DNA from: a virus
Virus record (IMG/VR): IMGVR_UViG_3300020186_000396
Location: 1-64,000 of that record
DNA length: 64,000 nucleotides
Strand: one strand, 5' to 3'
The notes under the pieces were generated by a model. The model saw only the letters and a program-made list of their open reading frames with translations, was not told the origin of the DNA and made no database searches. Position 1 is the first letter of the stretch. Each line of letters begins with the position of its first letter. A program made the position numbers and the translations under genes. Below are positions 1,924 through 47,625 of the stretch, piece after piece.

Positions 1924-2456
1924 GGGTAGGAGCAGAAAGTTTTGAATTGGAAGGAGAACCGCCAACATTGGGTGGTTTACTTAATTACTCTTTCATTCTT
2001 CCTGACGCTAGGGGGCCTAATCACATACTAACTCCTAGTATAACAGAAGCTGATTTGAAAAAAGGACTGGTAATCATATCTACATTGCCGAATATTCAAA
2101 AGCAACATTGTTTACAACAGATTAAAGAACTAGAATCTCTTACGTATAAGCTTTTGCCTCGGAGCACGAAAATATTCCACGTTTCGGCCGATGATAGATC
2201 TGACTGGAAAAAAGCCGAAGAACATCTGGCAAGTGTGCGGTTTCATGCGTATACTCTAGCAGATGCCGCAGAAGAAAGTGTCGTGTCATTCAAGGCCGCT
2301 TTCGGAATTGGTGTAAAAGGCACGCATCGAATAGCTCACGGATTGTTCGCGTTGTTGAATGGAAAATTCATCAATCTTCAAGTGCCGGATGATCAGCTTG
2401 GTGTGCCTAATGTTCCATTGTTCTTGAAAGAAATTCTCGATGTCAAATTCGCGTAA
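1896..2456 (+). CDS. Thiol peroxidase (Tpx)/redoxin-fold protein
   Basis: IISTLPNIQKQHC resembles the Tpx PxxxTxxC active site; VSAD and F..AFG follow. Real start is probably ~1911. Confidence 0.55.
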   Translation: MGKENMRTVRVGAESFELEGEPPTLGGLLNYSFILPDARGPNHILTPSITEADLKKGLVIISTLPNIQKQHCLQQIKELESLTYKLLPRSTKIFHVSADDRSDWKKAEEHLASVRFHAYTLADAAEESVVSFKAAFGIGVKGTHRIAHGLFALLNGKFINLQVPDDQLGVPNVPLFLKEILDVKFA

Positions 2457-2709
2457 AGAATTAACTCTTGATGAAATACGGGTTCGCGAGAAGTCACTTG
2501 AAGAGTTCGATGTCTATTTTAAAGAATCTATGTCTTTTCATAGGCACGTGATTATAAGGACCGTTTACCAAGGTTTAGTAAAATACAATTGTGACAAATG
2601 TGATGGGCAAATTACTTTTCGTGTAATTCCTAGTTCGATTAAATATTCGTTTGTCGAAATGCAATCTAACATGCACAGGCGATGCAAGCGTTTTGATATT
2701 CTACTATGA
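2440..2709 (+). CDS. Hypothetical protein
   Basis: 89-aa ORF overlapping neighbours, CDKC. Confidence 0.6.
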   Translation: MSNSRKELTLDEIRVREKSLEEFDVYFKESMSFHRHVIIRTVYQGLVKYNCDKCDGQITFRVIPSSIKYSFVEMQSNMHRRCKRFDILL

Positions 2710-3392
2710 CACGTATTGCTCACATATCAGACAATCATGGTTGGCTGTACCATGACTTTGAAGATGCCGATATAATTGTGCATTCTGGAGATTTCCTTCC
2801 GAATAGTGTGGCTCGTGGCCATGGGCCAGTGAAGCAGGAAATTCAATATCAGACGCGATGGTTGATCGATAACAAAGATGCTCTCAAAGCTTGGATTAAA
2901 GATAAACAATTTCTGTTTTGCCGTGGCAACCATGATTTTATGAATCCGGTTCCGCTGATGCAGAAATTTGGCATCGACGCGATCGACATCACTGAAGATA
3001 TTTACTGGGTCGACGATTTGGCTTTTTATGGATTTCCATACATTCCATGGACAGGCGGAGGGTGGAGTCAAGAGCTTCTACCTCCTGAAATGTCGACCAA
3101 ACTTGATACGGTAGTGAAATATATAAATGATGGTATGGTAAATGTTCTGGTCGCCCACTGTCCTATTTATGGAATCTTAGACAAAGGACATCAAAGCATT
3201 GGTCAGCGGTGGGGTAATAACGCTCTAAAAACAGCGTTTGATTACAAAATCAAAACTCTACCAAAGGCTTTGCTGTGTGGTCACGTCCATGAGGACCACG
3301 GAATGGCTACTTATCCTCCCGATCCTAAACCTGAAGATCAGGTAACTATTATCTCTAACGCCGCAACTACGGTACACTTTATTACTATTTGA
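2706..3392 (+). CDS. Calcineurin-like metallophosphoesterase
   Basis: SDNH, HSGD, GNHD, H, GHVHE motifs. Confidence 0.9.
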   Translation: MTRIAHISDNHGWLYHDFEDADIIVHSGDFLPNSVARGHGPVKQEIQYQTRWLIDNKDALKAWIKDKQFLFCRGNHDFMNPVPLMQKFGIDAIDITEDIYWVDDLAFYGFPYIPWTGGGWSQELLPPEMSTKLDTVVKYINDGMVNVLVAHCPIYGILDKGHQSIGQRWGNNALKTAFDYKIKTLPKALLCGHVHEDHGMATYPPDPKPEDQVTIISNAATTVHFITI

Positions 3393-4240
3393 GTATAGTG
3401 GTAATGTCTACTGGTCCAGATCTATCAGATATCGATGGGACTTTTGAGCAAATGGATAGGCTGCTATCTGTTTTTCAAGAGAAAGGTAGCGCTGCTACCG
3501 AAGCTGATTTGCAAAAAGCTATGCAGGGAACGTCGGTCGCGCCCGTGCAACCCGTACAGCCAGGGCCAACTGGACCGGATAAAAGTCATTTCCTGAAGCT
3601 AGACTTTCCAAATGGGCCACAATCAGCTTTAGCACCAGCTCCAAACACAGCAGTTAAGGTTGTGACTTCTCCTCGCACACAGCAGCAGCTAGAAGGCGTC
3701 GGACTGGCTGGCAAGCCAATGGAGTTCAAACAACCTATAAGAGGCTCCTGGTCGAACCAGGGCCCCTTCACAACGACCCCTTTCCAACGCCCCATTGACG
3801 GACCTGGAGCTAAACCACGCAATCACCTCGGAATGGATATGGCCGCTCCTGGCGGGACGCCTATTTATTCAATAGCTGACGGTGTCGTTTCGCAGGTAAC
3901 ATACGAAGCGGATCCGTCTAACCTAAATACTTTGGGCGGAACATCTTTGTTGATAAAACATTATGATGGAAAGATCGTTTCATACTACGGCCATTTAGAC
4001 AACGTCATGGTTCGTCAGGGCGAGCAAGTAACGATCGATACACAAATAGGAACGTGCGGCAGAAGCGGAAATGCCAGAAAGTCATCCACACACCTTCATC
4101 TTGGTGTTAGCATTAATGGTCAGTGGGTCGACCCGGCCAGCTTCATAGGTAACGCTCCAAGCTCACAAAAATTCGTTCATGCCAGCAGAATACACGCTCT
4201 AGTAAGCCTAGCAGCTAGGATCGAGAGTCGTGGCAAGTAA
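3389..4240 (+). CDS. M23 family metallopeptidase
   Basis: HLGMD (HxxxD), YGHL and HLH motifs; Pro/Gln-rich N-terminus. Confidence 0.9.
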   Translation: MSIVVMSTGPDLSDIDGTFEQMDRLLSVFQEKGSAATEADLQKAMQGTSVAPVQPVQPGPTGPDKSHFLKLDFPNGPQSALAPAPNTAVKVVTSPRTQQQLEGVGLAGKPMEFKQPIRGSWSNQGPFTTTPFQRPIDGPGAKPRNHLGMDMAAPGGTPIYSIADGVVSQVTYEADPSNLNTLGGTSLLIKHYDGKIVSYYGHLDNVMVRQGEQVTIDTQIGTCGRSGNARKSSTHLHLGVSINGQWVDPASFIGNAPSSQKFVHASRIHALVSLAARIESRGK

Positions 4241-4844
4241 AGCTGTGCAATCTCTGAACGAGATTGCCTCGGCAATCGAGTGCTCTGTATGTGGAGATAA
4301 GGCCACTCTATCCGTTCATGTTGATGGGCTTACCAACTATGAAGGCTCAAACATAACACCATCTAATTTAAACATCATTTTGATGAAACCAGATTTCATC
4401 GTCGACTCATATTCAATTGATGTGAATACAGGATTGATCAAAATCAATTCTATGGATCGCAGTCGTTCTAACAAGAACATAAAGAAAATTTCAGGAAAAG
4501 AGCTTCTACGCGCAATATCTAAATTTAGATTGAGAGCTGGGTATTGCACGCGTAACTGGAATGGCGAAAACGATGTTTATTACGATCATGTCATATATGA
4601 TTATGATTGCAAAGTGGATATTGACAACAGCAAATTACTTGACATTGAATACGTAGGGTTTACGATCTCTGACATTAATAATGATGGAATCTATCGGCGC
4701 ATTCAAACGACCGAGACATCAACGGAAATTCGAGTTGGTCATTGCGGACAACCGCCACCGGTCACATCATTGAAAATCAAAGCCTTGTCTTTGTCAAAAT
4801 GTGTCGAAATACTTCGTAACGATAAATATCTGAATTTTTTATAG
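4230..4844 (+). CDS. Hypothetical protein with CxxC
   Basis: 204-aa ORF, CSVC. Confidence 0.65.
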   Translation: MASKAVQSLNEIASAIECSVCGDKATLSVHVDGLTNYEGSNITPSNLNIILMKPDFIVDSYSIDVNTGLIKINSMDRSRSNKNIKKISGKELLRAISKFRLRAGYCTRNWNGENDVYYDHVIYDYDCKVDIDNSKLLDIEYVGFTISDINNDGIYRRIQTTETSTEIRVGHCGQPPPVTSLKIKALSLSKCVEILRNDKYLNFL

Positions 4845-4863: not shown

Positions 4864-5946
4864 ATGACGGTGCTGAAAAGAATTGTTGAGGGCGCTCAGA
4901 CGGTTGAGTGGCTGGAAGATCGGACCATCTTCCTTACTCGTCACGGTTCGGTCGCGTACGGAACCAATACGCCCTCTTCTGATGAGGACTTCCGAGGCAT
5001 TGCCATTCCTCCAAGGGAATACTTCTTAGGTTTCGCCAAGAAGTTCGAACAGTTGGTGAAGAAAGACCCGGATGCTCAAATCTTTGACATTCGGAAATTC
5101 ATGATGTTGGCGTTTCAAAACAACCCCAATATCCTTGAAGTTCTATTCACCGACGAGAGTGACCATCTTCTTGTGACTCCAGCTGGACGAGAGCTTCTTG
5201 ATCATCGTGAGGAGTTCATCTCCAAAGCGGCCAAAGCTCGATTCCTCGGGTACGCCAAGCAGCAGGCGCACCGTATCAAGAACCATCGCAGGTGGCTTTT
5301 TGACCCGCCGAAGGCTCCGCCGCTCCGGTCGGATCTTGGTCTGCCTGAGAAGCCTGTCTTCAAGAAGCAGGATAAAGAGGTCATCTTCTCTCAGATTCGG
5401 AAACAGTTGGATTCGTGGAATCTCGATTTCGATCCGTTCAACGACATCCAGAAGATTTACCTCCATGATAAACTTGGAGATATTCTCGCTGACATGAAGC
5501 TGTCTTCCGATGCTAAATGGGAAGCGGCAGCTCGAACTCTGGGGGTTCAGGAGAACTTCATCAAAAGCCTGATCGATGAAAAGGCTTTTGATACCCGTCA
5601 AGAAGACTGGGAAAGCTATCAGGGTTGGTTAAAATCTCGGAACCCGATTCGTGCTGCTTTAGAAGCGAAGTTCGGATACGACACGAAGCACGGTGGTCAT
5701 CTCGTACGATTGCTTCGTATGGGTTTGGAGATCCTTGAAGGCAAGGGCGTCATCGTTAAGCGTCCAGATTTCAAGTACTTGCTTGAGGTTCGAAACGGGC
5801 TTCTGGCGTATGAGGATTTGATTTCTTATGCCGAAGAGATGGAAGCCAAGATCAACGCTATCTACTTGACTTCAAAAATCCGAGCAATGCCTGACAATAA
5901 AAAACTCGACGCGCTTTGCGAGAAGTTAGTGTTCGAGAGCTTCTAG
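4864..5946 (+). CDS. DNA polymerase beta-superfamily nucleotidyltransferase (RlaP/YcgL-like)
   Basis: HGSVAYGTNTPSSDEDFRG (GS...DxD), NPNILE, YDTKH..HLVRLL. Confidence 0.88.
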   Translation: MTVLKRIVEGAQTVEWLEDRTIFLTRHGSVAYGTNTPSSDEDFRGIAIPPREYFLGFAKKFEQLVKKDPDAQIFDIRKFMMLAFQNNPNILEVLFTDESDHLLVTPAGRELLDHREEFISKAAKARFLGYAKQQAHRIKNHRRWLFDPPKAPPLRSDLGLPEKPVFKKQDKEVIFSQIRKQLDSWNLDFDPFNDIQKIYLHDKLGDILADMKLSSDAKWEAAARTLGVQENFIKSLIDEKAFDTRQEDWESYQGWLKSRNPIRAALEAKFGYDTKHGGHLVRLLRMGLEILEGKGVIVKRPDFKYLLEVRNGLLAYEDLISYAEEMEAKINAIYLTSKIRAMPDNKKLDALCEKLVFESF

Positions 5947-5969
5947 TATCACAAATGCTCGAATGACGA

Positions 5970-6320
5970 GTGCGCGACTACCGCGCATTTTCATCTTTGA
6001 TGTCGTCATTCGAGCATTTTGTTTTTTGCTGTCTGGCTTTCTGGACGCTCTTGAAGCTGATAGGCGTATTCTCGTTCATTCAACGGGTGTGGCTTCATCG
6101 CGAGGCGAAGCGTTCCTATGAGAACCTGGCCCGGTTCGAGCTGAACGTCGGTTCAGAGAATGAGCTTCGAGCCCTAATCAAGGATGCTCGAAACATGCTT
6201 ACCGACAAAACGATCGATTTAATCATCGTTAAGCTGAACGACATTTCAGTTGAAAAAGCTGAAAAGGCCAAGCTCGCGGAATCGAATAAGATATTGCATC
6301 TACGCAGACCTATCAATTGA
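5970..6320 (+). CDS. Hypothetical membrane protein
   Basis: Hydrophobic N-terminal segment. Confidence 0.55.
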   Translation: MRDYRAFSSLMSSFEHFVFCCLAFWTLLKLIGVFSFIQRVWLHREAKRSYENLARFELNVGSENELRALIKDARNMLTDKTIDLIIVKLNDISVEKAEKAKLAESNKILHLRRPIN

Positions 6321-6353
6321 TTTGATAGCGAGGGCGCAGCGCAATTTTTTTAT

Positions 6354-6541
6354 CATTCTCCAAAAGAATACCCCTCCCTTTAGGGAGGGGATGAATTTTT
6401 GTTCAGAAAAATATAATGCGTTATATAGAGTAGCAATGTCAACGTGAGTTCATCGTGAACTACCTCGCCCTAGGGCAAGGCTTCTGAAAGTATCCGGCGA
6501 ATTTATTTCGCCGGATATCGCAAGGCTCGTCCCGAGCCCCA
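6354..6541. mobile_element. Non-autonomous tnpB-element derivative with its right half inverted
   Basis: TTAT at 6350-6353; left end to ATG at 6354-6438; 16 nt of captured flank; right-end scaffold in reverse orientation at 6455-6541. Confidence 0.9.
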
Positions 6542-6594
6542 CTGTTCATACGTGTGGTTACTTAACTAAATGTCACTTACTTTAGGGGTTCCTC

Positions 6595-7002
6595 ATGTCG
6601 AATGGCGACGCAGCGGCAACATTCTTCAATCTCGTATTGAACATGAATCCGTCATTGCGATTTGATGATAGGGTCAGCGTGAAAATGGTGTCCCGACTCT
6701 TGTCTACATTTGAGCTTGAGATTAAGGACAAAAAAATAATCGACTATGATTGGTTGCTAGAAACGGTGGCGGGCGCTTTACAGCTTCCTGCACGAGTAGT
6801 CGAGCCATTTGTGGAAATGTATGCTACGGCGTATGTAGCAATCAACGGTCGAAAATTCACCAAAATGTGTTACAGTTGTAGGCGTAGTCACAATCTCGAT
6901 GAGATCCAGCAATGCGGGATGCGAGATAGTAGCGTAGTGAAAACTGCAATCGGGTTAGTCGTAGTGGACGATAACGAGAACATTTCCTCTGTAAAAAACT
7001 AA
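6595..7002 (+). CDS. Hypothetical protein, partial paralog of 7339-7626
   Basis: LPARVVEPFVEMYA vs LSVAVVTPVVQMYV; CYSC. Confidence 0.6.
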   Translation: MSNGDAAATFFNLVLNMNPSLRFDDRVSVKMVSRLLSTFELEIKDKKIIDYDWLLETVAGALQLPARVVEPFVEMYATAYVAINGRKFTKMCYSCRRSHNLDEIQQCGMRDSSVVKTAIGLVVVDDNENISSVKN

Positions 7003-7057
7003 CATTAACGACAGGCAGGGATATTCCTGGGGCATTCATTTGTCCTAGGATTTTTCT

Positions 7058-7216
7058 ATGAAAAATCATCGTGCGTTAATCTTTAATCTTATGCTGGTGG
7101 TACTTGTACTATTAGGCATACTTTTAGTTTCTGTCGTTGGAATGAGTAAATGCCGGGCCAGCACTACTCCTTTTATGATCTGCATAATCGAATCGATTAA
7201 AAAATCGTCGAACTAA
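7058..7216 (+). CDS. Small membrane protein (52 aa)
   Basis: MKNHRALIFNLMLVVLVLLGILLVSVVG...; below the ORF-track cutoff. Confidence 0.5.
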   Translation: MKNHRALIFNLMLVVLVLLGILLVSVVGMSKCRASTTPFMICIIESIKKSSN

Positions 7217-7338
7217 ATTTTCGTTTTTGAACGGCTGTCAAAGTAATCAACTCTTCCATTTATCGAGATAGGCTTGATTGGGATTTGCTACTTCAGTGTA
7301 ACAAGTAGTTAGCTTGTACATTAAAGGAGCTTAACCAA

Positions 7339-7626
7339 ATGTCCCCAGATACAGCACAACGCATCTTTCAGGCCGCAGACACGATTCTCGAAGAGCTGAA
7401 CAACGTCGAGCGCTTGACGTTAAAAGACGTCTCAACACGGATTGCTACCTCGACTGGTCTATCAGTCGCTGTCGTTACACCGGTTGTTCAGATGTACGTC
7501 AAAAATCGAAGTGACCTTATCCTTCGTAAGGGTCGTGGCGGTGGTATTCGTCGTCGCAAGGCAGAAGCAGATACCGTTACGACTAAAGTCGCTCGAATCT
7601 GTACTAACTGTGGTTTCGACGTCTGA
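7339..7626 (+). CDS. Small putative winged-helix DNA-binding protein
   Basis: AAGGAG SD; helical HTH-like segment followed by RKGRGGGI; followed by a terminator. Confidence 0.55.
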   Translation: MSPDTAQRIFQAADTILEELNNVERLTLKDVSTRIATSTGLSVAVVTPVVQMYVKNRSDLILRKGRGGGIRRRKAEADTVTTKVARICTNCGFDV

Positions 7627-7631
7627 TCGTC

Positions 7632-7673
7632 ATGGCCTCGCTAAATAAACTTTAGCGAGGCCATTTTACTTTT
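7632..7673 (+). terminator. Intrinsic terminator
   Basis: ATGGCCTCGCTAAA-TAAAC-TTTAGCGAGGCCAT then TTTACTTTT. Confidence 0.8.
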
Positions 7674-7707
7674 GTCGATTTGATCAGATTTATTGTCATC
7701 CTAATAG

Positions 7708-8469
7708 GTGACTAAAAAAGAGGAAATCGAAAAAGCAAATCAATACAATGCAGCTCGAAAAAAACTGCAAGTATCAATTCAAGATGTATACACTACCTTT
7801 TGGTCATTGTTTGACAATACCGATAGTATCATTGAGAATGAAATTGATTTACAATCAGGTTTAGAAAAAAAGATTTTAGACCTCTTCAAATTAAGCGCTT
7901 ACGAGGGTCGTAAAGTTTTTTCTCGTATTGTTTATCGCCAAGTTAGTCAAAAAATATACGCGTCCGACGCAGGTAAATCAGTAAATTGGTTACTTAAATT
8001 CAGCAATCAGTTACCTGACCCAATGATCCAGAAAATATTAAGTCGTTCAATTATTCTTCGCGGCAACATCAATATGTTATCGCAACTCGCTTCAGTTCGA
8101 ACAAAAATTCCAGTAGATCTTTGTGATAAAGCAAGTATCACGAAAGACCACGTGAAATGTTTGAAATTGGTTATCATGCACATGGGAATGCACGATATCA
8201 ATGCTGATTTTCGTTACAGTAAAAATCTCATTCACATAGCTTCTATTAATGAAGAATTAGCGACAACCCTCGAAGAGCATATGCTCAAAAAGGCGCGTCG
8301 CTATAAAAATTTCTACCATCTGGTTGGGTACATGGAAAGTTGCCCGACAGTAGATAAAAGAAAATTCTTCGTTGAGATTTTCAAACATAAAACACACTAT
8401 AATGCCAGGATCGCAATCGAACGCCTGAAAAAACATCCAGAGCTACATAAGTACTTCAATCTTACTTAG
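7708..8469 (+). CDS. Hypothetical helical protein
   Basis: 253-aa ORF; C-terminal KYFNLT motif. Confidence 0.7.
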   Translation: MTKKEEIEKANQYNAARKKLQVSIQDVYTTFWSLFDNTDSIIENEIDLQSGLEKKILDLFKLSAYEGRKVFSRIVYRQVSQKIYASDAGKSVNWLLKFSNQLPDPMIQKILSRSIILRGNINMLSQLASVRTKIPVDLCDKASITKDHVKCLKLVIMHMGMHDINADFRYSKNLIHIASINEELATTLEEHMLKKARRYKNFYHLVGYMESCPTVDKRKFFVEIFKHKTHYNARIAIERLKKHPELHKYFNLT

Positions 8470-8486
8470 ATTGATATAGTTCATAC

Positions 8487-9632
8487 ATGGCCAATAAGTA
8501 TGCGCTGATCTTATCCGGAGGGGCTGCCAGAGGCGCATACGAAGTAGGTGTTTTGAAATACATATTCCAGGAGTTGCCGTTGATTTACGGTAAAATGCCT
8601 GAATTTCAAATCATTTGTGGAACATCTGTCGGAGCTATTCATGCGTGTTTTCTAGCGGCGCACCTATCGAACGTGACGGTAGAGCTGGATCGCCTGGAAA
8701 AATTATGGACAGAGCTATCTCCTAGCAAAGTCGTAACCGTTGATTTTAGGCAGCTATTTAGAATTAAAGAATTGTTATTGGGAGGAAATCGTGGCGTTGG
8801 TCTATTGGATGTGAATCCATTGGCAACTCTACTTACTCGTGAAGGTAGTTACGATAAGATTTCCGGCACCATTAACTCTGGTAAGCTGGATACTCTATGT
8901 GTGTCGACGACATCTGCTAGAACAGGTCAGACCATTGTTTTCAGCGAGTCGAAGCAACCTTTACCTAATCCTGTTTTCAGAACTGAGTTCAGGTCTGCCG
9001 ATATAACTCTTCAGCATGCATTAGCCTCTGCATCGATACCAATTCTGTTTGCTCCAATTCAGATTGGTGGCGAATGGTTTACTGATGGCGGAGTTAGGCA
9101 AAACACCCCTATGGTTCCGGCTCTCGGGTACGGAGCAACTCATACGCTATCTATCGGATTATGGCATAACAAAAAATATAATTCATCTCCACGTATAGAT
9201 GACTCGCCAAGTATAGGTTGTCTTCTAGGTAAAATATTCAATTCATTTTTCATCGATCATGCTCATGTGGACGTTCACAGTCTTGAGCACATAAATAACA
9301 TAATTGGTGAAGGCGTAAAAAAATACGGTGTTGAGTTTGCAGAGCACATGGCCAATCAATCAAGGCCATATAAATACATCAACTCTTGTTCGATTAGCCC
9401 ATCAATGGATATTGGTAGAATTGCTGCCACTTATCTTTCCAAAGCCACGATCAAGAAAGATAAGATCTACAAGAACCTTCTCAAACTGATCGACCTCGGA
9501 ACCATAGAGGCAGATTTAGCTAGTTATCTGCTTTTTGACGGAGAGTTTTCCAAATTGCTAATCGAGCTTGGTTTCCAAGATGCTCGGGCAAGACAGCATG
9601 AATTAGCGCAATTCCTTGGAATCGACGAATGA
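8487..9632 (+). CDS. Patatin-like phospholipase
   Basis: LSGGAARG, GTSVG (GxSxG), DGG. Confidence 0.93.
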   Translation: MANKYALILSGGAARGAYEVGVLKYIFQELPLIYGKMPEFQIICGTSVGAIHACFLAAHLSNVTVELDRLEKLWTELSPSKVVTVDFRQLFRIKELLLGGNRGVGLLDVNPLATLLTREGSYDKISGTINSGKLDTLCVSTTSARTGQTIVFSESKQPLPNPVFRTEFRSADITLQHALASASIPILFAPIQIGGEWFTDGGVRQNTPMVPALGYGATHTLSIGLWHNKKYNSSPRIDDSPSIGCLLGKIFNSFFIDHAHVDVHSLEHINNIIGEGVKKYGVEFAEHMANQSRPYKYINSCSISPSMDIGRIAATYLSKATIKKDKIYKNLLKLIDLGTIEADLASYLLFDGEFSKLLIELGFQDARARQHELAQFLGIDE

Positions 9633-9653
9633 GCGGGTGATATATGAGCCCAT

Positions 9654-10556
9654 GTGAAGAATCAACAAGATTATTTTTATGGGTTGAATGCCAGCGATAA
9701 CTCCAACGCGAACGGTGTAACTGGTATTTCTGGGGCTATCAATGGACCACTTACTCAGCCTAGTATGCCGATAACTGGTAGCGGTATGGTTACTGTTGGA
9801 GCTACATCGATAACAAACCCTCCTTGGATTACAACTACTAACACTACGCTTCCGTACTATGGCGACCTAACTGGGGCCTGGACTACAGCTGGTGTGATGT
9901 GGCCCGGGATGGCTGGTCAACTTTACGAGGGCAAACCATCCTGGTTAGAAAAGTCTATCGATAAAAAGTACATCAAAATTTTGGTAGAAGCCAAGAATTA
10001 CAATATTCTTTGCAACATCGCAGATATTGTTATTAGATCGCATAGATCCAGTTTTCATTTATTAGAAAAAAGTATTCTTAGATCCAATGACTTTGAAGTG
10101 ATCGGTCTTTACATGAAATCTGTAAAGAACATCGGTGTAAAACATTTAACAAAGAATTTTCTACAGGCCTACAACTCTTCTACCGAAGAGCGTAAATCAG
10201 AAAGATTTACGAATATGGCTTATGAGTCACGTAGCAAATTAGATTTGAAAACCTGCTTCAAGTTCGCAATTAAAAAGAAGGATCCGATATACGTTCAATG
10301 GTTAATGTCGAGTCCTTATTATCACGAGTTTGATACTGATATGATAGATTCTAAAATTTCTAATAAAAACATTGATGCATTAGTTTCTATGTGTGGAGAT
10401 ACAAATCTTCTTTTTACTTTGGCTAACATTTCCAAAATGGTCAACAAAGAAAAAATCTATAGAAAAATTCGCAACCTTGGTGATTTCGATTTGGCCAGAA
10501 AGATGGTCGATAGTTCTGACGAAGATTGGGCCAAGAAGCTAGTGCATATGAAGTAG
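9654..10556 (+). CDS. Hypothetical protein (Thr/Gly-rich N-terminus, helical C-terminus)
   Basis: 300-aa ORF. Confidence 0.65.
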   Translation: MKNQQDYFYGLNASDNSNANGVTGISGAINGPLTQPSMPITGSGMVTVGATSITNPPWITTTNTTLPYYGDLTGAWTTAGVMWPGMAGQLYEGKPSWLEKSIDKKYIKILVEAKNYNILCNIADIVIRSHRSSFHLLEKSILRSNDFEVIGLYMKSVKNIGVKHLTKNFLQAYNSSTEERKSERFTNMAYESRSKLDLKTCFKFAIKKKDPIYVQWLMSSPYYHEFDTDMIDSKISNKNIDALVSMCGDTNLLFTLANISKMVNKEKIYRKIRNLGDFDLARKMVDSSDEDWAKKLVHMK

Positions 10557-10595
10557 AAGTCGAGAGTCTTGTTAAGCATTCAGCAATTTGAGTAC

Positions 10596-10685
10596 GGAGA
10601 TATGGCCGAGCGGTTTAAGGCACCTGTTTTGAACACAGGCGAAGGTGAAAGCCTTCCGGGGGTTCGAATCCCTCTGTCTCCTCCA
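10596..10685 (+). tRNA. tRNA-Ser (anticodon TGA)
   Basis: Acceptor GGAGATA/TGTCTCC; anticodon arm CCTGT-TTTGAAC-ACAGG; long variable arm; GTTCGAATC; encoded CCA. Confidence 0.93.
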
Positions 10686-10704
10686 TTCTTAAATTGGTGA
10701 TAAA

Positions 10705-11613: not shown

Positions 11614-11615
11614 TC

Positions 11616-12002
11616 ATGTGGCCTAGACGTTATTACAGACGCCGTAGTGGAACGATGGTTCGTTACGAATGGCTTGCTGCCATTAAAGAGAAGAAGATAA
11701 AAATAGCTGCACCTTGGGTTCGCGTCGATAACCCAAAATATCGCCTATCGGTAATTAAGTACACTCGTTGTAATTACGAGAAGCATGTATCTTTCAATAT
11801 CAGGGCCGAGGTCTTCAGAGTTCGCGGAACAACGCGCTGGCGCTATATTGTTGGGTACAGGAATCACAGTGCGCGAGCTTATTATCGTGGTTTTTGTTAT
11901 TCCAAAAAAGCTGCCTTTAAAAAAGCAGACAAGCTTCTTGCAAAACACAACGTGCGAGGCATTGATGAAAAAGGCCTTGCCAGAATCAAGTTATTTACAT
12001 GA
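11616..12002 (+). CDS. Hypothetical protein (paralog family with 11999 and 37028)
   Basis: PW...W.Y...KADKLL pattern. Confidence 0.65.
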   Translation: MWPRRYYRRRSGTMVRYEWLAAIKEKKIKIAAPWVRVDNPKYRLSVIKYTRCNYEKHVSFNIRAEVFRVRGTTRWRYIVGYRNHSARAYYRGFCYSKKAAFKKADKLLAKHNVRGIDEKGLARIKLFT

Positions 12003-12361
12003 TTGGTCGATTAGATCGAATGTTGGTTACACCTTGGCAGGCTTGTGGCTATCGAGGCAAGGCTTGTCGCAGGCGACAACTTCTACTAGAGAATTCATCA
12101 AATTACTTAAACGTAAGTGTACATAAATACACTGGCGGTAAACGCTGGAATTATTCAATTGAGTTCCGTGACAGCGAAGCGCAAGCAAGCGGCGGAATAA
12201 TCATTGGAACATATTGCGCTAAAGGTAAAGCGGCTCGGTTTAATGGCTTTACGTTTTCTGAAGAAAAAAGTAAAGCGATAGTTGATGAATTTCTTACTAC
12301 CGTTCTTAAAATGGAACTTATTACTTTAGAACAAATGAAACGCTATAAGGTGATGTCATAA
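11999..12361 (+). CDS. Hypothetical protein (paralog family)
   Basis: TPW...WNY...VDEFL pattern. Confidence 0.65.
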   Translation: MIGRLDRMLVTPWQACGYRGKACRRRQLLLENSSNYLNVSVHKYTGGKRWNYSIEFRDSEAQASGGIIIGTYCAKGKAARFNGFTFSEEKSKAIVDEFLTTVLKMELITLEQMKRYKVMS

Positions 12362-13189: not shown

Positions 13190-13199
13190 TGAAAGATAC

Positions 13200-13632: not shown

Positions 13633-13836
13633 TGGATGTTCTTTACTACGAGAGTCACGTAACGGTCGAACCAGTGTTCGATGAACGTCTCGAAAAATTC
13701 AAAGAGATCTGTGCTCCTCACACGTTCAAGCCTGCTAAACTTCTAATGAAGAAGCGTAGCTTTGATACTCCCGTTCGTTCTGAGTATGATACGTTTTGTA
13801 CTGGTAAGAACAAAAACGAAGAGAAGCTTCGGTTAT

Positions 13837-16735: not shown

Positions 16736-17419
16736 ATGGAGTATTGGCGTAATTTTGGTTTTGCGGTTAAAGACTACAAAAACCCTGATTATCAGAATAA
16801 TCTAAAATATATTGCAGATAAGATTCTTGATTTAAAGAATCCGTCGCTAGCTTATATGTTTTCTTTGGACGCCAAAGATTTCGATCTATCTCCTATGCAA
16901 GAGTTGATTATCAACTCAGGCAGCATACGATTTACGTATTTATATGCAATCAATATTGTCGGAGCCGATGTAGCTAGATTACAAGAGATAATTCTTGCAT
17001 CAAAACAAACGCGATACATTGTTAATTTCGCTTGCAGAGTTAAAAACATTGATGTTCGTAGGTTTGAGAAGATTGTTGCGTCAGCGAATTGTGCCAAATT
17101 TTCTTATTTGTTTCTTAGATATGTTGCGAAGACAAATGTAAGAGTTTTTAGAAAAACGTTATTCGAATCGAAACGTTCTAAATACTTATATGAATTGGCA
17201 AAGCATACCAAATCGAAACAAGAGCTAAAGAAAATAGAAGCTATTATCATTAAAAACAAAAGCAATCTTTATGTGCGTTTGTTCGCACAACATATACCTG
17301 GAGCGGATATAAAGTCTCTTGAGCGAAGGATTGTAAGGTCAAGAAACAAAACGCAAATTGAACGCTTTGCGAAAAACGTAAAGGGAGCAACCTGCGGTCG
17401 TCTCTTATCCCTCGCCTGA
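16736..17419 (+). CDS. Helical-repeat hypothetical protein
   Basis: ~28-aa periodic units (Y.FA..I.GAD...L...I). Confidence 0.7.
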   Translation: MEYWRNFGFAVKDYKNPDYQNNLKYIADKILDLKNPSLAYMFSLDAKDFDLSPMQELIINSGSIRFTYLYAINIVGADVARLQEIILASKQTRYIVNFACRVKNIDVRRFEKIVASANCAKFSYLFLRYVAKTNVRVFRKTLFESKRSKYLYELAKHTKSKQELKKIEAIIIKNKSNLYVRLFAQHIPGADIKSLERRIVRSRNKTQIERFAKNVKGATCGRLLSLA

Positions 17420-20699: not shown

Positions 20700-21299
20700 G
20701 TGGCCAGCATAGTTAACATATCGAATCTACTCGATGAAATACAGCAGCCACTTTATATTCATGCTACCAATGCACGAACAAATAAGCTAATCGCCATTCA
20801 AAAAGCAGCGAATGAGTTACGCAAAGCGCAACTAGAGTGCGTTGGGCGTAAATACGTTTATAAACTTATGACCGGCGTAAGGTTTGGTCGTGTCAATTAC
20901 AGAACGTTTTATAAACTCGTAGACATTTTACGAGTGCATGAAACATCTGCGTACTTCATCTTGCATCATAAGATCTTAGATTTCGTTACAGTAAACAAGT
21001 ATAAAGCTCGGTGGTTCATCGTATTCTTGATGAAACTACGTCACAAACGAGATGGCAACACAAAACATATCCAAGATGTATTCATCAAGCGCTATCTATC
21101 ACCTAAAAATGATTTATCAGCAAGGATCGACTCAACGTTTCTGAATATGTTTGTTCAAGAGTACCCTTCATTTGATCGTACTAAGCTATTTCGACATCTA
21201 GTTAACTATAAAAATGCAAAAGATAGCTACGGCAAGAACGTATTATCTACATTTTTTGAGATATGTCCTGAGTACAGTAAGTACGCGATACTAGAATAA
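20700..21299 (+). CDS. Hypothetical protein
   Basis: 199-aa ORF; C-terminal KYAILE. Confidence 0.65.
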   Translation: MASIVNISNLLDEIQQPLYIHATNARTNKLIAIQKAANELRKAQLECVGRKYVYKLMTGVRFGRVNYRTFYKLVDILRVHETSAYFILHHKILDFVTVNKYKARWFIVFLMKLRHKRDGNTKHIQDVFIKRYLSPKNDLSARIDSTFLNMFVQEYPSFDRTKLFRHLVNYKNAKDSYGKNVLSTFFEICPEYSKYAILE

Positions 21300-21340: not shown

Positions 21341-21665
21341 ATGAAACTATTCTATCAGTTGTCCAGTAAACAGCAAGACGCCGCCATCGAACATTGTGCA
21401 GATCTAGTTGAAAACGCGCGAAGATAAGCTTCAGTTCTTGATGGACGACGAAGTGTTCTCAGATACAATTTTTGAATTAGCTTCTGAGATGGCTCACAAC
21501 GCATTTTATCACGACAATGATGAGCTTGTGGTATTTACAGATGCGCTTGATTCACGTGTAGCGTCTAACGACGACGAAGACGAAGCTGCTGATGATGAAG
21601 CTGATGAAGATATCAAGACGGTTGAAGATTTGGTCCGCCCACACTTAAAGAAACTTCTTAATTAA
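21341..21665 (+). CDS. Acidic hypothetical protein, possibly frameshifted
   Basis: ATG 21341 opens MKLFYQLSS...VENARR*; a second frame 21408-21665 continues. Confidence 0.4.
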
Positions 21666-22959
21666 ACGATAGCACCTTGAAGCCCATGCTTGTGAAGTCT
21701 TTGACTGACAAACAGTTGCGGGCATCAAAGATCATTTGTTGGTGCATGGTTTGACCAAGCTGAAACCAATCTATATCAAAATACTCTGGCCACTCTGTGC
21801 AAAAAATAATTATGTCAGTATCTTTAAACAGATCGTAAACAGATTCGCAATATTCAACTGCGAAGTCTGGAAATTTCATTGGCATTTTGAAACTAGCTAC
21901 TGGATCGTGAGCTTTAATAATTGTTCCGTGCTCTAATAGCACTCTAATTATATCGACCGAAGGTGAGTCGGTAAGGTCATCAGTAAATGGTTTGTATGTT
22001 AAACCCATTATACCGATTGTTTTTCCATTCAGCCCACCTAATTCATTAGCTATTTTATGAATCAGAATATCGCGTTGGTTATAGTTAGATCGTAGTGCGC
22101 TATCAATTATCGGTACTTCGATGTTTGAGGAGATAGCAATATCGTTTAGCATCTCGAAACTTTCGCCGTATTCTTTGCGGCTCCATCCAAGGCCATACTT
22201 GATATTTAGTGAGTTGATGCCGGTTGCCTTGAGTACTCTAATGACTTCGTCAGTCTTTGCTCCGTTTTGATTAGCAAGATTGTTAATCTCATTCAGAAAT
22301 GATGATTTTACGCCTTTAAATATCTTTTCAGCATGGTAGGCCAATTCAGCTGAACCGATATCAGTAATGATCAATTGACCATCTTGTCGATGCGGTTGTG
22401 GAAGGTAATCAGGCAGAATTATAGATTTTTCTATGATTGGGCGATACAATCCGTCAAGAATAGATGCTGCGCGTAGATTGTTAACCCCAACAACAATTTT
22501 TTCGGGGTAAAACGTATCGATGATAATCGAGCCGGTAGTTATTCCGGGCATTTCATATGCTACGGCGAAGTTATCGCTCTTTTCGCGTATTACTTTGCCA
22601 GCTTGAACAGTAAGCCCTAGTTGGGTAGGTGATTTGTTTACAAGAATTCTGAATTTAGACTTAATCGTCTCGGAAAATACAAGAGCAACTTCCATCAGGT
22701 TATAACCTGCATCCGAAGTAAAGAACACGACATCACTCTGTTCGATCGCGCTTGTAACGTTTGTCGTATAGTATAAACTGCTATTTACTATTTTAATCGA
22801 GTCGTTCAGATACGGTTCGTAAAAATGCAATGAATTATTGCGTAATAGCTCTATTTTTGTTTGGTTGTCGTCCACGATGATCACAAAATGATTCATGTAC
22901 GCTAACAAAATAGCAGTGGAAAGACCGATTTCGTCGGTCCCGATTACGGCGATGTTCAT
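21658..22959 (-). CDS. UDP-glucose/GDP-mannose dehydrogenase homolog, degenerate
   Basis: FYEP.L, VNKS, SFLNEI, GLTYKPFTDDL.DSP, FDARN; catalytic motifs altered. Confidence 0.85.
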   Translation of the reverse strand: MNIAVIGTDEIGLSTAILLAYMNHFVIIVDDNQTKIELLRNNSLHFYEPYLNDSIKIVNSSLYYTTNVTSAIEQSDVVFFTSDAGYNLMEVALVFSETIKSKFRILVNKSPTQLGLTVQAGKVIREKSDNFAVAYEMPGITTGSIIIDTFYPEKIVVGVNNLRAASILDGLYRPIIEKSIILPDYLPQPHRQDGQLIITDIGSAELAYHAEKIFKGVKSSFLNEINNLANQNGAKTDEVIRVLKATGINSLNIKYGLGWSRKEYGESFEMLNDIAISSNIEVPIIDSALRSNYNQRDILIHKIANELGGLNGKTIGIMGLTYKPFTDDLTDSPSVDIIRVLLEHGTIIKAHDPVASFKMPMKFPDFAVEYCESVYDLFKDTDIIIFCTEWPEYFDIDWFQLGQTMHQQMIFDARNCLSVKDFTSMGFKVLSFN

Positions 22960-37027: not shown

Positions 37028-37387
37028 TTGCTTAGTTTACAATCACAACAAGCTTTTATGATCGCGCCACGTTTAACCCCATGGGAAAAGTACAGCGCTC
37101 GCGAATGGCGCCGAAGCGTCGTTACCGAATACGGTAACGTACCGCTCGTCCGTTGTTGGGGTCGCAACAAGCACGGTGTGGCCGAGTGGACCTGGGCAAC
37201 GTTGACGCCTGGATTTCAGGCTATCCCTCCGGAATATTTCAAATCCAAAGTCTCCAAATTTTTGACGCCGTATCATGTGAAAAACACCGTCTTCGTACGT
37301 AAATGTGATGCATTGATTCAAGCCGATGACCTCATGAGAGGTGCCGGGCTTTTGTTATTAAAAAATAAACACTTAGCATTCCTATGA
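37028..37387 (+). CDS. Hypothetical protein (paralog family with 11616/11999)
   Basis: TPW...WTW...QADDLM pattern. Confidence 0.6.
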   Translation: MLSLQSQQAFMIAPRLTPWEKYSAREWRRSVVTEYGNVPLVRCWGRNKHGVAEWTWATLTPGFQAIPPEYFKSKVSKFLTPYHVKNTVFVRKCDALIQADDLMRGAGLLLLKNKHLAFL

Positions 37388-39389: not shown

Positions 39390-39995
39390 ATGGAAGAGAA
39401 AAGCATAATAAGAATTGAAGACCAGATTCAGTTTGCGTTTGAAAATTTCGGTGATTTCCCGCCTGAACAACAAAAAAAACTAATAGAAATTGTTCAAACT
39501 AAATTCAAAGTGGAGCAAATGAGCTGGCAGCTACGCGAGCCCGTGTTCTACGGTTTTGTTGCTTACTCTCTTCCGGTTGAGAACTACCCAATCAGGACAA
39601 TGGTTACTTCTTTGCTTTCTGAAGATCTATTTGGAAGACATTTAAAAGAGAACATTAACGAAGCAAAAATAGCTTTATTGCAAAACTTTACTACGCTTAT
39701 GAAATTCTATACCGGTGCTTCTGATATGAAATGGCAAAAGAATTTTGCCTTTCTTGATACAAGATTAGGCAACGCGTTAATCAACGCGCATTTAACTGAT
39801 ATCAAAAAAGAGTTACAAAACAGATATTGTTCTGATTATCGCCTTGATGGCTCAATCAGGCAGGTACTAGACCTATACCATGTTACAGGTTTAAAACTTG
39901 GAGATTTGGTTTTAACATTCAAATCCAGACCTAAACAGTTGGAACTTATTACAAAAGTTGTGCCAGAGGCTGCTAAATACGTCACCATGATCTAG
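39390..39995 (+). CDS. Hypothetical protein
   Basis: 201-aa ORF; C-terminal KYVTMI. Confidence 0.65.
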   Translation: MEEKSIIRIEDQIQFAFENFGDFPPEQQKKLIEIVQTKFKVEQMSWQLREPVFYGFVAYSLPVENYPIRTMVTSLLSEDLFGRHLKENINEAKIALLQNFTTLMKFYTGASDMKWQKNFAFLDTRLGNALINAHLTDIKKELQNRYCSDYRLDGSIRQVLDLYHVTGLKLGDLVLTFKSRPKQLELITKVVPEAAKYVTMI

Positions 39996-40162: not shown

Positions 40163-40726
40163 ATGAAGATTCGCAATTTACTTCCGTTTTTATTTCCACT
40201 CGTTCTCCTGTCTTCCGGATGCTCTCCGTCGAAGGTAGTCACCCCGCCAGTTGCGGCCCCGATACCGGCAGCAAGTCCGGTTAAACCTGCATTTGTTCCA
40301 CCAACTGGCTGGAAAACTGTTAGCGGTAAAGGTTTTGCTTTTGCTGTTCCAAAAACAGTTAGCGAGGTCAAAGGCGCACCAGGCGAAGAGTTTGCTAAGT
40401 TTGCTGCCAAATCTGAGGATAATAATTTTCTATTGGGATTTGATTACAAAGATAATATCAAAACAGTTAATCGAATGTCAAAGCAGATTATGGAATCTTT
40501 AGCTGATATCGATGCTGAGGTTCAACAAATCAAACAGGTAGAGGTGGACGAATATGATGGAGCAGTGTTTCTAGCCGTGCACGGCAACCATGTGTTTATG
40601 GTATATGTTTTTGTTAAAGATCAAATAGGGTATCAAATTTCATGCGGCACTCCGGATAAATCTGAAGCTCAGAAAATGGTCGATGCCTGTGAGGCCATCG
40701 TCGATACTTTCAAATTTACTAAATGA
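40163..40726 (+). CDS. Putative lipoprotein (PsbP-like fold)
   Basis: Signal peptide with SSGC lipobox, Pro-rich linker. Confidence 0.6.
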   Translation: MKIRNLLPFLFPLVLLSSGCSPSKVVTPPVAAPIPAASPVKPAFVPPTGWKTVSGKGFAFAVPKTVSEVKGAPGEEFAKFAAKSEDNNFLLGFDYKDNIKTVNRMSKQIMESLADIDAEVQQIKQVEVDEYDGAVFLAVHGNHVFMVYVFVKDQIGYQISCGTPDKSEAQKMVDACEAIVDTFKFTK

Positions 40727-41457
40727 AAATTCGGCAAGGTATTTTACTAGCGGCAGGAACAGGTTCACGCCTGCACCCATTAACGCTAACAATGAACAAA
40801 CATATGATTCCGGTCTACGACCGTCATATGATAGAGTACCCTATCGAAACGCTTCGTCAGCTTGGTTGTGAGACAGTCACGATCGTTATAGGCGGGGACC
40901 AAATAGGATTTGGTCAAATCGTATCCTTCCTAAAGGATGGCGAACAATTTGGAATGAAATTCAATTATGTTTATCAGATGAAGCCTTCTGGTATTGCTCA
41001 GGCCATTAATCTTTGCGAGGACTACATTAAAGATGATAAGTTCGCAGTCATTCTTGGCGACAACATATATGAAAAGAAAATCAACTTCACCAATCCTAAG
41101 CCTGGCGCTCAGATCGTTTTGTGTCAGCACCCAGAGATCAATCGCTTTGGAGTCGCTTCTATTTTAAACGGCTCGATCGTTAACATTGTGGAAAAGCCAC
41201 AAATTATTGATGAAACGTTAGATAATTTTGCAATCACTGGCCTTTACATATTTGATCAAAACTACTTTTCTTTTTATCCTCAGTTGAAACCATCATCTAG
41301 AGGTGAATATGAAATAACGGACATGATGAAAATTTACCATCGAGACAAAGACCTTTACTATACAATAAGTAATGGGTGGTGGTCTGATACCGGTACATTT
41401 GAATCTATACAGTCAGTTAGCAATAGAATCAGAGAAAAAATCATTTTAGCCAAATGA
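40723..41457 (+). CDS. Glucose-1-phosphate thymidylyltransferase (RmlA-like)
   Basis: LAAGTGSRLHPLT...NKH, GIAQA, LGDN, EKP, RGEYEITD, W.DTGT. Confidence 0.92.
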   Translation: MKIRQGILLAAGTGSRLHPLTLTMNKHMIPVYDRHMIEYPIETLRQLGCETVTIVIGGDQIGFGQIVSFLKDGEQFGMKFNYVYQMKPSGIAQAINLCEDYIKDDKFAVILGDNIYEKKINFTNPKPGAQIVLCQHPEINRFGVASILNGSIVNIVEKPQIIDETLDNFAITGLYIFDQNYFSFYPQLKPSSRGEYEITDMMKIYHRDKDLYYTISNGWWSDTGTFESIQSVSNRIREKIILAK

Positions 41458-41484
41458 TTTGAACTGGATCGATATACGATATGT

Positions 41485-42360
41485 ATGCGAACAGTTGTCA
41501 TAGGAAAAGGTTTCATTGAGTCTCATATAAGTGCATCTGACTTTGGGCAGCGGCCGGGGTACAAAGCTTGCGACTATAGATTCGAGCCCTCTAAAGAGAG
41601 CATCGAACGCTTCATAGATAAAGCCAAGCCTGACGTAGTCATCAACTGTTTAGGTAAAACAGGACGACCTAACGTCGACTGGTGTGAGACTCATAAGGAT
41701 GATACGATGATCGCGAATGTGACGATCCCGACGCTTTTAGCTGAGGTCACGCATCGTCACGGAATACAGCTCGTCCATATCGGTTCGGGTTGTATTTTTT
41801 ACGGACTGTCTCCTAACGCAGGAGACCCAATGGACCGAGACTTTAGAGGCGATCCTGGCTGGAAAGAAACTGATTTTGCAAATTCTAAATCTTATTATTC
41901 GAAATCAAAATATTCGTGTGATTTAGCAATCTCGGATTTTGATAACGTTTGCATTTTGCGCATCAGGATGCCAGTCTCTGCTAGTTTCGTACCACGCAAT
42001 TATATCACTAAAATATTAGGGTACTCCTCTATTATTGGAGCTTCAAACTCCGTTACATTTATGGATGATTTCGTCAAAGCTGCGGCGTGGACGATTGACA
42101 AGTCGAAACGAGGGGTTTACCATGTTACCAACCCAGATCCCGTTACTCCGATGGATTTCCTGTCGGAATACCAGAAGTACGTACCTGGGCACACATATAG
42201 CGTGATTAATGAGAAGCAGCTCGATGCGCTCACTATAGCCCCAAGGTCTAATTGTATAATTGATAGCTCAAAAATCATCGGTGAAGGTTTACGACTATCA
42301 TCCTCAAAAGATCTAATTGAGGATTACATGAAACGTTTCGTTACATCAATGGAGCATTAA
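41485..42360 (+). CDS. NDP-4-keto-6-deoxyglucose epimerase/reductase (RmlD/NRS-ER-like)
   Basis: GKTGRPNVDWCE, SGCIF, YSKSK, LRIRMP, APRSNC. Confidence 0.85.
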   Translation: MRTVVIGKGFIESHISASDFGQRPGYKACDYRFEPSKESIERFIDKAKPDVVINCLGKTGRPNVDWCETHKDDTMIANVTIPTLLAEVTHRHGIQLVHIGSGCIFYGLSPNAGDPMDRDFRGDPGWKETDFANSKSYYSKSKYSCDLAISDFDNVCILRIRMPVSASFVPRNYITKILGYSSIIGASNSVTFMDDFVKAAAWTIDKSKRGVYHVTNPDPVTPMDFLSEYQKYVPGHTYSVINEKQLDALTIAPRSNCIIDSSKIIGEGLRLSSSKDLIEDYMKRFVTSMEH

Positions 42361-46664: not shown

Positions 46665-47119
46665 GGGGAAAAAGCGTTGATATTGATTTCATTTCCGTCT
46701 TCGTTGAAGAATGTGTTGCCAAAGAGATGGCAACTCCCTCAGATATTGCTTCTGAGGCCAAGATTCGAATCAACAACATTGATCACGAGATTCGACGTAT
46801 CGAGACGCTTAAGAACGAGCGCTCTAAACTGGTCGACGTGGTCAACAGCTTCGATTCTGTTGATGAGGAAGCTGAGGACGAAAACAGCGTGTTTGCCACC
46901 GATGACTGCCTCTCAGACGACTTCACCAACCAGATTGCCAAATACATCGGCGCGAACCTAGCGGGCGTTTCGATCAAGCAGATCCTCCTTCAGTTCGGCG
47001 GAGACTCTCTGAAAGAGCAGATCTTTTTCTCCGTCAAGAAGCTGGCCGAGAGCGGGCTGACTGTTAGGAACACAGATCGGAATTTCGTTCCTGGTCCTAA
47101 ATGGAAGATGTCCGCGTAG
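46661..47119 (+). CDS. Coiled-coil plus winged-helix-like protein
   Basis: Start MRGKSV at the ATGA overlap. Confidence 0.6.
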   Translation: MRGKSVDIDFISVFVEECVAKEMATPSDIASEAKIRINNIDHEIRRIETLKNERSKLVDVVNSFDSVDEEAEDENSVFATDDCLSDDFTNQIAKYIGANLAGVSIKQILLQFGGDSLKEQIFFSVKKLAESGLTVRNTDRNFVPGPKWKMSA

Positions 47120-47135
47120 ACGGTATATGTTACGT

Positions 47136-47300
47136 ATGCTTCCAGATAATATTGACGAACAGATAGCGAAGTTACGTAAACGCAGAAGCGAGCTTGTTAA
47201 ACAGATTTGGGATATTGAGAGCGATATCATTTGTTTGAGAGAAATTAAGCTGAAGCACGCAGAAGTCGAACGACTCAAAGGCGATGTCGAGCAAAAATAA
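47136..47300 (+). CDS. Small coiled-coil protein (54 aa)
   Basis: MLPDNIDEQIAKLRKRRSEL...; -10-like box 6 nt upstream. Confidence 0.55.
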   Translation: MLPDNIDEQIAKLRKRRSELVKQIWDIESDIICLREIKLKHAEVERLKGDVEQK

Positions 47301-47625
47301 AGCCTATGCCAAACTTATTAAACGTTTAGTAAGTATTGATAAGGATAAGTTTTGCCGAATGCTTGCTGCTAAAACTAATGTACCGTTTGATCATGTGTAT
47401 GCGATTGTGAATCTATTGCTGGACGAAATGCAGAGAGAGTTTAGGAACGCACATTCTGTGAATGTTGTTAACTTTGGTAAATTCGAACTGATTCAACAGA
47501 AACCTAAAAAGATACTAAATATCAATACTGGTGCTCACCAAGTTGTCGAGCGCACGAAGCGATTGAAGTTTGTACTAGATCGCGCTCTTTCTTCTTTTAT
47601 TTCTAAATTCGTAGATATGGAGTGA
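47284..47625 (+). CDS. HU/IHF family DNA-binding protein
   Basis: V.VVNFGKFEL......NINTG......LKF. Confidence 0.8.
   Translation: MSSKNKAYAKLIKRLVSIDKDKFCRMLAAKTNVPFDHVYAIVNLLLDEMQREFRNAHSVNVVNFGKFELIQQKPKKILNINTGAHQVVERTKRLKFVLDRALSSFISKFVDME

Follow-up and report, generated by a model that had tools for sequence, protein, structure and literature searches.

The window analysed here comprises the first 64 kb of a virus contig of 100,668 bp (IMGVR_UViG_3300020186_000396, hereafter G000), which comes from an uncultured huge phage and has an estimated completeness of about 24% (CheckV). Open reading frames (ORFs) were called by a codon-usage score, which gave 138 ORFs in the contig, 99 of them inside the window. 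In the left part of the contig (0.7-47 kb), a lineage-specific accessory region, there are genes whose proteins end in the same short pattern, [KR]-[FYLIVMWH]-x-x-[LMF]-x, or in short form [KR]-hydrophobic-x-x-[LMF]-x. This tail, or tag, is the subject of the present study, and its analysis depends on stop positions alone, not on ORF starts. The tagged genes are interleaved with genes for RlaP, patatin, PNKP, RNA ligase, macro and Thg1-like proteins. The part of the contig that is common to distant relatives (48-98 kb) carried no tag, save for one match that is probably due to chance.

The original prediction had listed 11 tails and two near misses, at 743 (RTVSLLS) and 52085 (RYLLT), and all of them were present in the sequence. 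The coordinates given for the tails were valid as ORF starts and did not mark the tails themselves, which sit at the ORF ends, from 2709 for the first to 47625 for the last (Table 1). Expected counts were taken from the rate of the pattern at internal protein positions, and P values were binomial. The results showed that 13 of the 138 contig proteins end in the tail pattern against 1.05 expected (P = 7e-11). Twelve of the 13 lie in the window, and the two matches beyond the 11 are at 21658-22959 (minus strand) and at 85974-86429, outside the window. With F, Y or H required at position -5, nine proteins were found and 0.32 were expected from the internal rate. Because the motif had originally been picked after the tails had been viewed, we scanned the last 8 residues blindly for every three-position residue-class motif, with 200 sets of pseudo-termini from the interiors of the same proteins as the control. 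The top motif of the contig was K/R at -6, F/Y/H at -5 and L/M/F at -2 (nine found, 0.29 expected, p = 2.5e-11), and the best of the 200 pseudo-termini sets reached 1.5e-8.

A close relative of 434,688 bp, the IMG/VR record G001, was identified through a homologue of the protein encoded at 7708 and was fetched whole. The contig is collinear with 203-306 kb of G001, where 96 of its 138 proteins are matched. The tail pattern was found in 59 of the 576 ORFs of G001, compared with 3.3 expected (P = 5e-53). The blind scan of G001 again returned positions -6, -5 and -2 (54 found, 3.1 expected, p = 7e-48) and added Cys at -8. Among all G001 termini, K (91 against 36 expected) and R (58 against 29) at -6, M at -2 (38 against 14) and C at -8 (21 against 8) were all in excess. 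When clusters of related proteins were counted as single units, P was 1.4e-6 in the contig and 1.6e-25 in G001. A tail matrix trained on G001 alone found six contig termini at 8 bits, and 0.06 were expected. These results confirmed that the tail is enriched far beyond chance and is carried by about one protein in ten in both genomes, which together gave a set of 72 tagged proteins.

The motif is anchored at the free C-terminus. In G001, 59 matches were found at offset 0 and 10, 7 and 9 at offsets +1 to +3, on a background of about 4; the contig profile also peaked at 0, with 13 matches against about 1. In the 59 G001 tails, L occupied -5 in 26, R or K occupied -4 in 19, V occupied -3 in 20 and K occupied -1 in 13. 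The consensus is a helix-capping residue or Cys at -7/-8, K/R at -6, L/F/Y at -5, any residue at -4, often V/I/N at -3, M/L/F at -2 and a free last residue. Two further contig proteins, at 69011-69328 (K-F-L-N-L-I-E) and 80838-81215 (R-F-V-E-F-T-R), have the motif shifted inward from the end by one residue, and both forms are conserved in G001, so there may be a variant of the tag that is longer by one residue.

The signal resides in the peptide and not in the DNA. The basic tail residue alone was encoded by five different codons in the contig tails, third codon positions were free in the tails of the larger G001 set, and the 45 bases downstream of the stop held no information in that set. Thus, a ribosome-binding site, promoter, terminator, recombination site or insertion sequence end was rejected as the source of the pattern. 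TGA and TAG stops were commoner in tagged genes than in other genes (chi-square p = 2.7e-4), and ATGA stop/start overlaps in tight gene arrays account for at least part of this excess. Close paralogy was also rejected, as there were no BLAST matches among the tagged proteins of the window, and so was a membrane anchor, as only one of the 72 tagged proteins has a membrane-like stretch.

As a control, the same pipeline was run on contigs of 26-194 kb from eight relatives that are more distant, whose DnaE is 47-56% identical or which came up by way of the RNA ligase. They gave 11 tail matches against about 5.7 expected, and the blind scan revealed no tag of any kind in them, although these contigs are fragments and the absence is not proof. 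This indicates that the pipeline does not create tags, and an artefact of composition or gene calling was rejected on this ground. In the DNA sampled here, the tag is a feature of the G000/G001 lineage. Searches for other relatives gave no match among phage GenBank records, by DNA or by protein, and none among species-representative genomes; the sole match among metagenome contigs was a 99% identical copy, and viral contigs searched with three tagged queries returned G001 only or nothing. Within G001, no tagged genes were found at 110-240 kb. The G001 record is labelled 'provirus' by IMG/VR, and its positions 1-24000 have 54-57% G+C against about 47% elsewhere, with small genes only, all on one strand and none of them tagged; this stretch may represent another element or module.

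Selection acts on the tail as a peptide, and the tail persists as the bodies change: across orthologues of only 22-46% identity, it is the best-preserved part. Five orthologue pairs that are tagged in both genomes had 35% identity overall and 3.6 of the last 6 residues identical, whereas 30 untagged pairs of comparable divergence had 0.9 of the last 6 identical (Mann-Whitney p = 6e-4). The most diverged tagged pairs (22% and 24%) retain the tail. The original prediction had named in advance two tests on which the tail could fail, enrichment over internal 6-mers and conservation among homologues, and the tail passed both. Gains and losses of the tag also occur: the HU-like protein is tagged in the contig and untagged in G001, while patatin is tagged in G001 and has in the contig a degenerate form that is one residue longer.

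Table 1. Tail-bearing proteins, further pattern matches and the ClpP gene pair (tail letters are the last six residues).
Feature	Position	Strand	Remarks
89-residue Zn-binding-type protein	2440..2709	+	Tail RFDILL, Cys at -8; 13.6 bits with the tail matrix trained on G001 only
204-residue protein, no Pfam or PHROG match	4230..4844	+	Tail KYLNFL
253-residue all-alpha repeat protein	7708..8469	+	Tail KYFNLT, P-E at -10/-9
300-residue protein	9654..10556	+	Tail KLVHMK; 11.5 bits with the G001-trained matrix
128-residue member of the small alpha/beta 'PW...W' domain family	11616..12002	+	Tail RIKLFT
120-residue member of the alpha/beta 'PW...W' family	11999..12361	+	Tail RYKVMS
227-residue helical-repeat protein	16736..17419	+	Tail RLLSLA, Cys at -8
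199-residue protein	20700..21299	+	Tail KYAILE, P-E at -10/-9
119-residue member of the alpha/beta 'PW...W' family	37028..37387	+	Tail KHLAFL; family alignment A4
201-residue protein	39390..39995	+	Tail KYVTMI, P-E at -10/-9
HU-like DNA-binding protein with about 10 extra C-terminal residues	47284..47625	+	Tail KFVDME; uncertain tag bearer
UDP-glucose dehydrogenase	21658..22959	-	Tail KVLSFN; Pfam match; matrix score -4.2 bits; probably a chance match
Further pattern match outside the window	85974-86429		Probably a chance match
Two adjacent ClpP paralogues	48421-49005 and 49002-49598	+	PF00574, E 7e-50 and 2e-55

Ten of the 13 matches, namely the first ten rows of Table 1, look like true tag bearers. 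The orthologue of the 4230 protein in G001 is 24% identical overall, yet five of its last six residues are identical, and a metagenome homologue (43%) ends K-Y-T-N-W-L. All five homologues of the 7708 protein (40-63% identity) are tailed; K and Y never vary in them, and -2 is L or M. Contigs of 113 kb and 503 kb hold homologues of this protein. In the G001 orthologue of the 9654 protein, L, M and K are retained and -6 is Ala. A metagenome homologue of the 11616 protein (P0141) has an identical tail, and a homologue of the 11999 protein (P0165) ends K-Y-Q-V-M-K. The G001 orthologues of the 16736 protein (41% identity), the 20700 protein (41%) and the 37028 protein (22% overall) end C-K-R-L-V-P-L-F, P-E-Y-K-K-Y-M-V-L-E and R-H-Y-S-F-L, respectively, and the 39390 protein clusters with a G001 protein ending P-E-V-R-K-Y-L-L-L-K. 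The HU-like protein is less certain: PF00216 spans residues 19-103 of its 113, its tail scored 5.7 bits with the G001 matrix, and its G001 orthologue ends differently. The orthologue of the UDP-glucose dehydrogenase extends beyond the motif position.

The bodies that carry the tail are mostly small, soluble, fast-evolving, lineage-specific and unlike one another. With the tails removed, the 72 tagged proteins formed 63 BLAST families and, by lenient phmmer search, 40 clusters, with sizes that include 11, 8, 5 and 4; the cluster of 11 holds the 11616, 11999 and 37028 proteins. The original prediction of a common C-terminal tag was supported at the protein level. Its wording that the carriers come from different families held as far as BLAST is concerned, by which they are mostly unrelated, and needs some qualification in view of the sensitive search, which merges many of them. 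Its remark that recognisable enzymes lack the tail was right in general, the exceptions being the UDP-glucose dehydrogenase and the HU-like protein.

Among the Zn-binding-type proteins, 15 members were aligned, 14 from a tandem array in G001 plus the 2440 protein; H34, C51, C54 (as CxxC) and C82 are invariant, and the last Cys stands 2 residues ahead of the tag. In the helical-repeat class, the tail is preceded by P-E at -10/-9 (7708, 20700 and 39390) or follows a repeat unit (16736). The alpha/beta class, with P-W near the start, contains the 11616, 11999 and 37028 proteins plus ten G001 proteins, and the HU fold in the contig and the patatin fold in G001 are single tagged cases. The AlphaFold2 model of the 7708 protein (mean predicted local distance difference test, pLDDT, of 83.5) has an all-alpha repeat fold, an alpha-solenoid, in which the tail is the last short helix (residues 244-252), and a second structure model also draws the tail as a short helix (pLDDT 62). 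No usable match was found for 20 tagged proteins in Pfam or PHROGs, for the tagged proteins in the PDB by sequence or by fold (the predicted fold of the 7708 protein included), or above 0.9 in the ESM Atlas.

The alpha/beta 'PW...W' family allowed a wider view of the tail. Its three window members had no match in Pfam. A profile of the family was searched against 1.84 billion representative proteins and found 85, of which 73 were outside the two genomes; the profile contained the tail columns, so that tailed matches were favoured. Strict tags were present in 37 of the 49 single-domain forms, and near variants in most of the others. In contrast, 23 of the 24 longer or multi-repeat forms end directly after the last strand and have no tag. 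The existence of such tail-less forms means that the domain does not need the tail to be complete and that at least one carrier domain can do without it. The spacer from the last strand to the tag is usually 2 residues and up to 7. The tagged homologues represent 37 further sequence clusters, and the tail is therefore in use well beyond G000 and G001. Long proteins of up to 1298 residues from other metagenomic sources (P0132, P0133, P0143, P0145 and P0208) contain the domain in 2-7 tandem copies.

The surroundings of the tagged genes were also examined. The genes for RlaP, patatin, PNKP, T4-type RNA ligase, macro domain, Thg1-like and 2H/Acb1-like phosphoesterase proteins lie at 4864-20000 of the window and at 68423-68983 of the contig, and they give the accessory region the look of an island for RNA repair and counter-defence. 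A glycan and nucleotide-sugar cluster at 21658-36232 and 40723-42360 encodes UDP-glucose dehydrogenase, GDP-mannose dehydratase-like proteins, a C-methyltransferase, a pyruvyl transferase, a glycosyltransferase, a PRK/aldolase fusion and an NTP transferase; much of it is missing from G001. A TnpB (IS605 OrfB) gene at 13924-14991 and an ORF of 64 residues at 50311-50505 share their last ten residues, so the contig holds a dispersed fragment or mini-copy of the element.

Further to the right, a protein of 208 residues (57533-58159) matches only the N-terminal part of a classic AAA ATPase of 443 residues in G001 (246529-247860); its AAA domain is absent, and the next gene begins 50 bases further. 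A peptide deformylase (61931-62449) is fused to a C-terminal SEC-C metal-binding motif, and this arrangement is kept in G001 and in the distant relatives. The SEC-C motif is the SecB-binding tail of the SecA type. Outside the window, the large terminase (94890-97802, 970 residues) contains a LAGLIDADG homing-endonuclease segment that its G001 orthologue of 617 residues does not have, and this segment is probably an intein.

We lean towards the explanation that the tail is a portable docking (address) peptide with one shared reader. One phage or host partner would grip all tagged proteins by the tail, and in this way unlike bodies would join the same machine. As to what the reader is, the Clp machinery is the best lead, but a tentative one and a good deal more doubtful than the existence of a reader. 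The machine would be a Clp-type AAA+ protease composed of the N-domain of the host ClpX and the two ClpP paralogues of the phage. ClpX was considered because the tail resembles the tether of SspB, and a tail acting like that tether could deliver the tagged protein itself or cargo held by its body. The SspB tether, RGGRPALRVVK-COOH, docks on ClpX's zinc-binding domain (PMC3983244), for which a consensus 'LKxh' (L-K-x-small hydrophobic) has been reported (PMC7226468), and the tether peptide alone suffices for ClpXP degradation of a degron-less protein (PMC12373786). Compared with L-[RK]-V-[VI]-K or with the consensus of the zinc-binding domain, the phage tail agrees in part, in the type of residue at positions -5 to -1, with M/L/F at -2 given by the definition of the set. 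Like the XB tail of SspB, it lies at the extreme C-terminus, is hydrophobic at -5 and -2, is often basic at -4 and often has V at -3 and K at -1; in both cases, one constant tail serves a variable body, which in SspB binds the substrate. The SspB residues at -5 and -2 are L161 and V164, its main contacts.

Several observations weigh against this explanation. SspB is a single cellular adaptor, whereas here the tail is found on dozens of unrelated viral proteins. SspB has a long flexible linker, and no long disordered linker was found in the tagged proteins, where the tail follows 2 residues past the last Zn ligand or, usually, the last strand. The SspB peptide binds as a strand, whereas the models draw the phage tail as a short helix. 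K/R at -6, the most constant residue of the tail, has no counterpart in SspB, where this residue is Ala. Relatives in which no tag was found have the ClpP pair as well, so that the presence of ClpP does not follow that of the tag, and many of the tagged proteins are distant paralogues, so that the tail is shared partly by descent. The bias of the alpha/beta profile towards tailed matches is a further reservation. A search for SspB homologues returned enterobacterial sequences only and gave no useful view of the natural variation of that tail.

The reader was also sought among the phage proteins. No beta clamp, no ClpX/A/B-type ATPase (AAA_2) and no Hsp70 was found in G000 or G001, and Pfam showed no peptide-binding domain in the neighbours of the ClpP genes or in the conserved lineage-specific proteins. 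Classic AAA proteins were represented by the single 443-residue protein of G001, whose contig orthologue, described above, lacks the AAA domain. The polymerase of the phage is of the DnaE type and has a different conserved element (G-L-I-E-F) near its end; as no phage beta-clamp gene was found, the clamp of the host is presumably used.

Within the Clp explanation, a more specific idea is that the tagged proteins are natural adaptors for targeted degradation, in which each body would bind a different host protein and the tail would plug into ClpX; we regard this as rather unlikely. A host target, for example a defence factor, would be fed to the Clp protease, including the ClpP pair of the phage, and the bodies, that is, the fast-evolving Zn module, the helical repeat and the alpha/beta domain, would supply the specificity. 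A similar arrangement is found in the PRANC and F-box ankyrin-repeat proteins of poxviruses, which combine variable binding bodies with a constant C-terminal element in expanding gene arrays, and whose element recruits a degradation machine of the host. However, the poxvirus element belongs to a eukaryotic virus and is a folded domain some 40 residues long, whereas the tail has six residues and belongs to a phage.

Other readings of the tail were weighed against a shared docking peptide. The tail could be a timer degron, which marks the accessory proteins themselves for clearing by Clp, Lon or FtsH at a set stage of infection. It is C-terminal, end-anchored and hydrophobic, it sits on small non-core proteins, and the phage encodes two ClpP paralogues. 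However, C-terminal degrons of ClpX end in small non-polar residues (ssrA, L-A-A) or in a basic run followed by A-I (MuA), while the last residue here is free (L, K, V, E, A and others) and -2 is a bulky M, L or F; the untagged relatives with ClpP also speak against a degron, and we consider it improbable. The reader could instead be another hub, such as the sliding clamp, RNA polymerase, the classic AAA ATPase of G001 or another phage protein. The evidence for a shared reader serves this possibility equally well, the spaced hydrophobic residues after a basic one are reminiscent of clamp-binding peptides, and the phage has a DnaE-type polymerase with no beta-clamp gene of its own found. Clamp motifs (Q-L-[SD]-L-F or Q-L-x-L-x-L), however, start with Gln, in whose place the tail has K/R; the phage DnaE retains its own near-end motif, and the AAA domain is missing from the contig orthologue. 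Another hub is therefore unlikely in our opinion, if slightly less so than a degron. Two other known types of C-terminal signal also differ from the tail: proteasome-type HbYX tails, since -2 is M/L/F by definition and no excess of Tyr was found there among all G001 termini, and PDZ ligands, which have a hydrophobic last residue, while 13 of the 59 G001 tails end in K, 5 in E and 3 in R.

A signal for loading into the virion was considered as well, in which the tail would bind the procapsid interior or the scaffold and the tagged proteins would thereby be packaged and injected along with the DNA. A short peptide at the end of unlike proteins would suit this role, just as encapsulin and T4 signals address unlike proteins to one HK97-type shell; many proteins are packed by huge phages, and a counter-defence role, suggested by the RNA-repair, macro, patatin and 2H-phosphoesterase neighbours, would gain from injection. 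On the other hand, the tagged genes are found in small-gene arrays that lie apart from the block common to relatives, with none at 110-240 kb of G001, and about 60 packed species would be very many, far more than in the known systems. The encapsulin cargo consensus is of the L-T-V-G-S-L type, and the capsid-targeting signal of T4 is N-terminal and cleaved, so that the tail differs from the former in sequence and from the latter in the end of the protein on which it lies. We consider virion loading very unlikely, the least probable of these readings. Finally, there may be no common reader at all, and the tail may be a structural end-piece, a last strand or capping helix, inherited in a few old and fast-diverging superfamilies with similar packing needs. 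The merging of tagged proteins into clusters of 11, 8, 5 and 4 by the sensitive search, the Cys at -8 acting as a Zn ligand, the hairpin-like spacer of mostly 2 residues after the last strand and the models, which draw the tail within the fold, all fit such a piece. However, the same pattern is found at the end of bodies as different as an all-alpha repeat protein, a Zn-binding family and an alpha/beta domain, there are alpha/beta forms with no tail, the tail is better conserved than the bodies, and its position from the free end is fixed while the spacer varies. We find this account about as doubtful as the degron.

Shared terminal tags are already known for single adaptors, degrons and cargo peptides. 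No published description of a tag such as the one reported here was found, and none from a phage at the scale of a proteome. Should a single reader serve a tenth of the proteins, the docking tail would be a handle on the 'dark matter' of phages: about 60 proteins per genome that are annotated without function would be grouped in one pathway, and the six residues would serve as bait for the partner. If the tagged proteins are in addition degradation adaptors, which we rate as rather unlikely, they would correspond, in a phage, to the poxvirus PRANC/F-box families and to engineered degrader peptides that recruit ClpXP, with adaptors on the scale of a tenth of the proteome.

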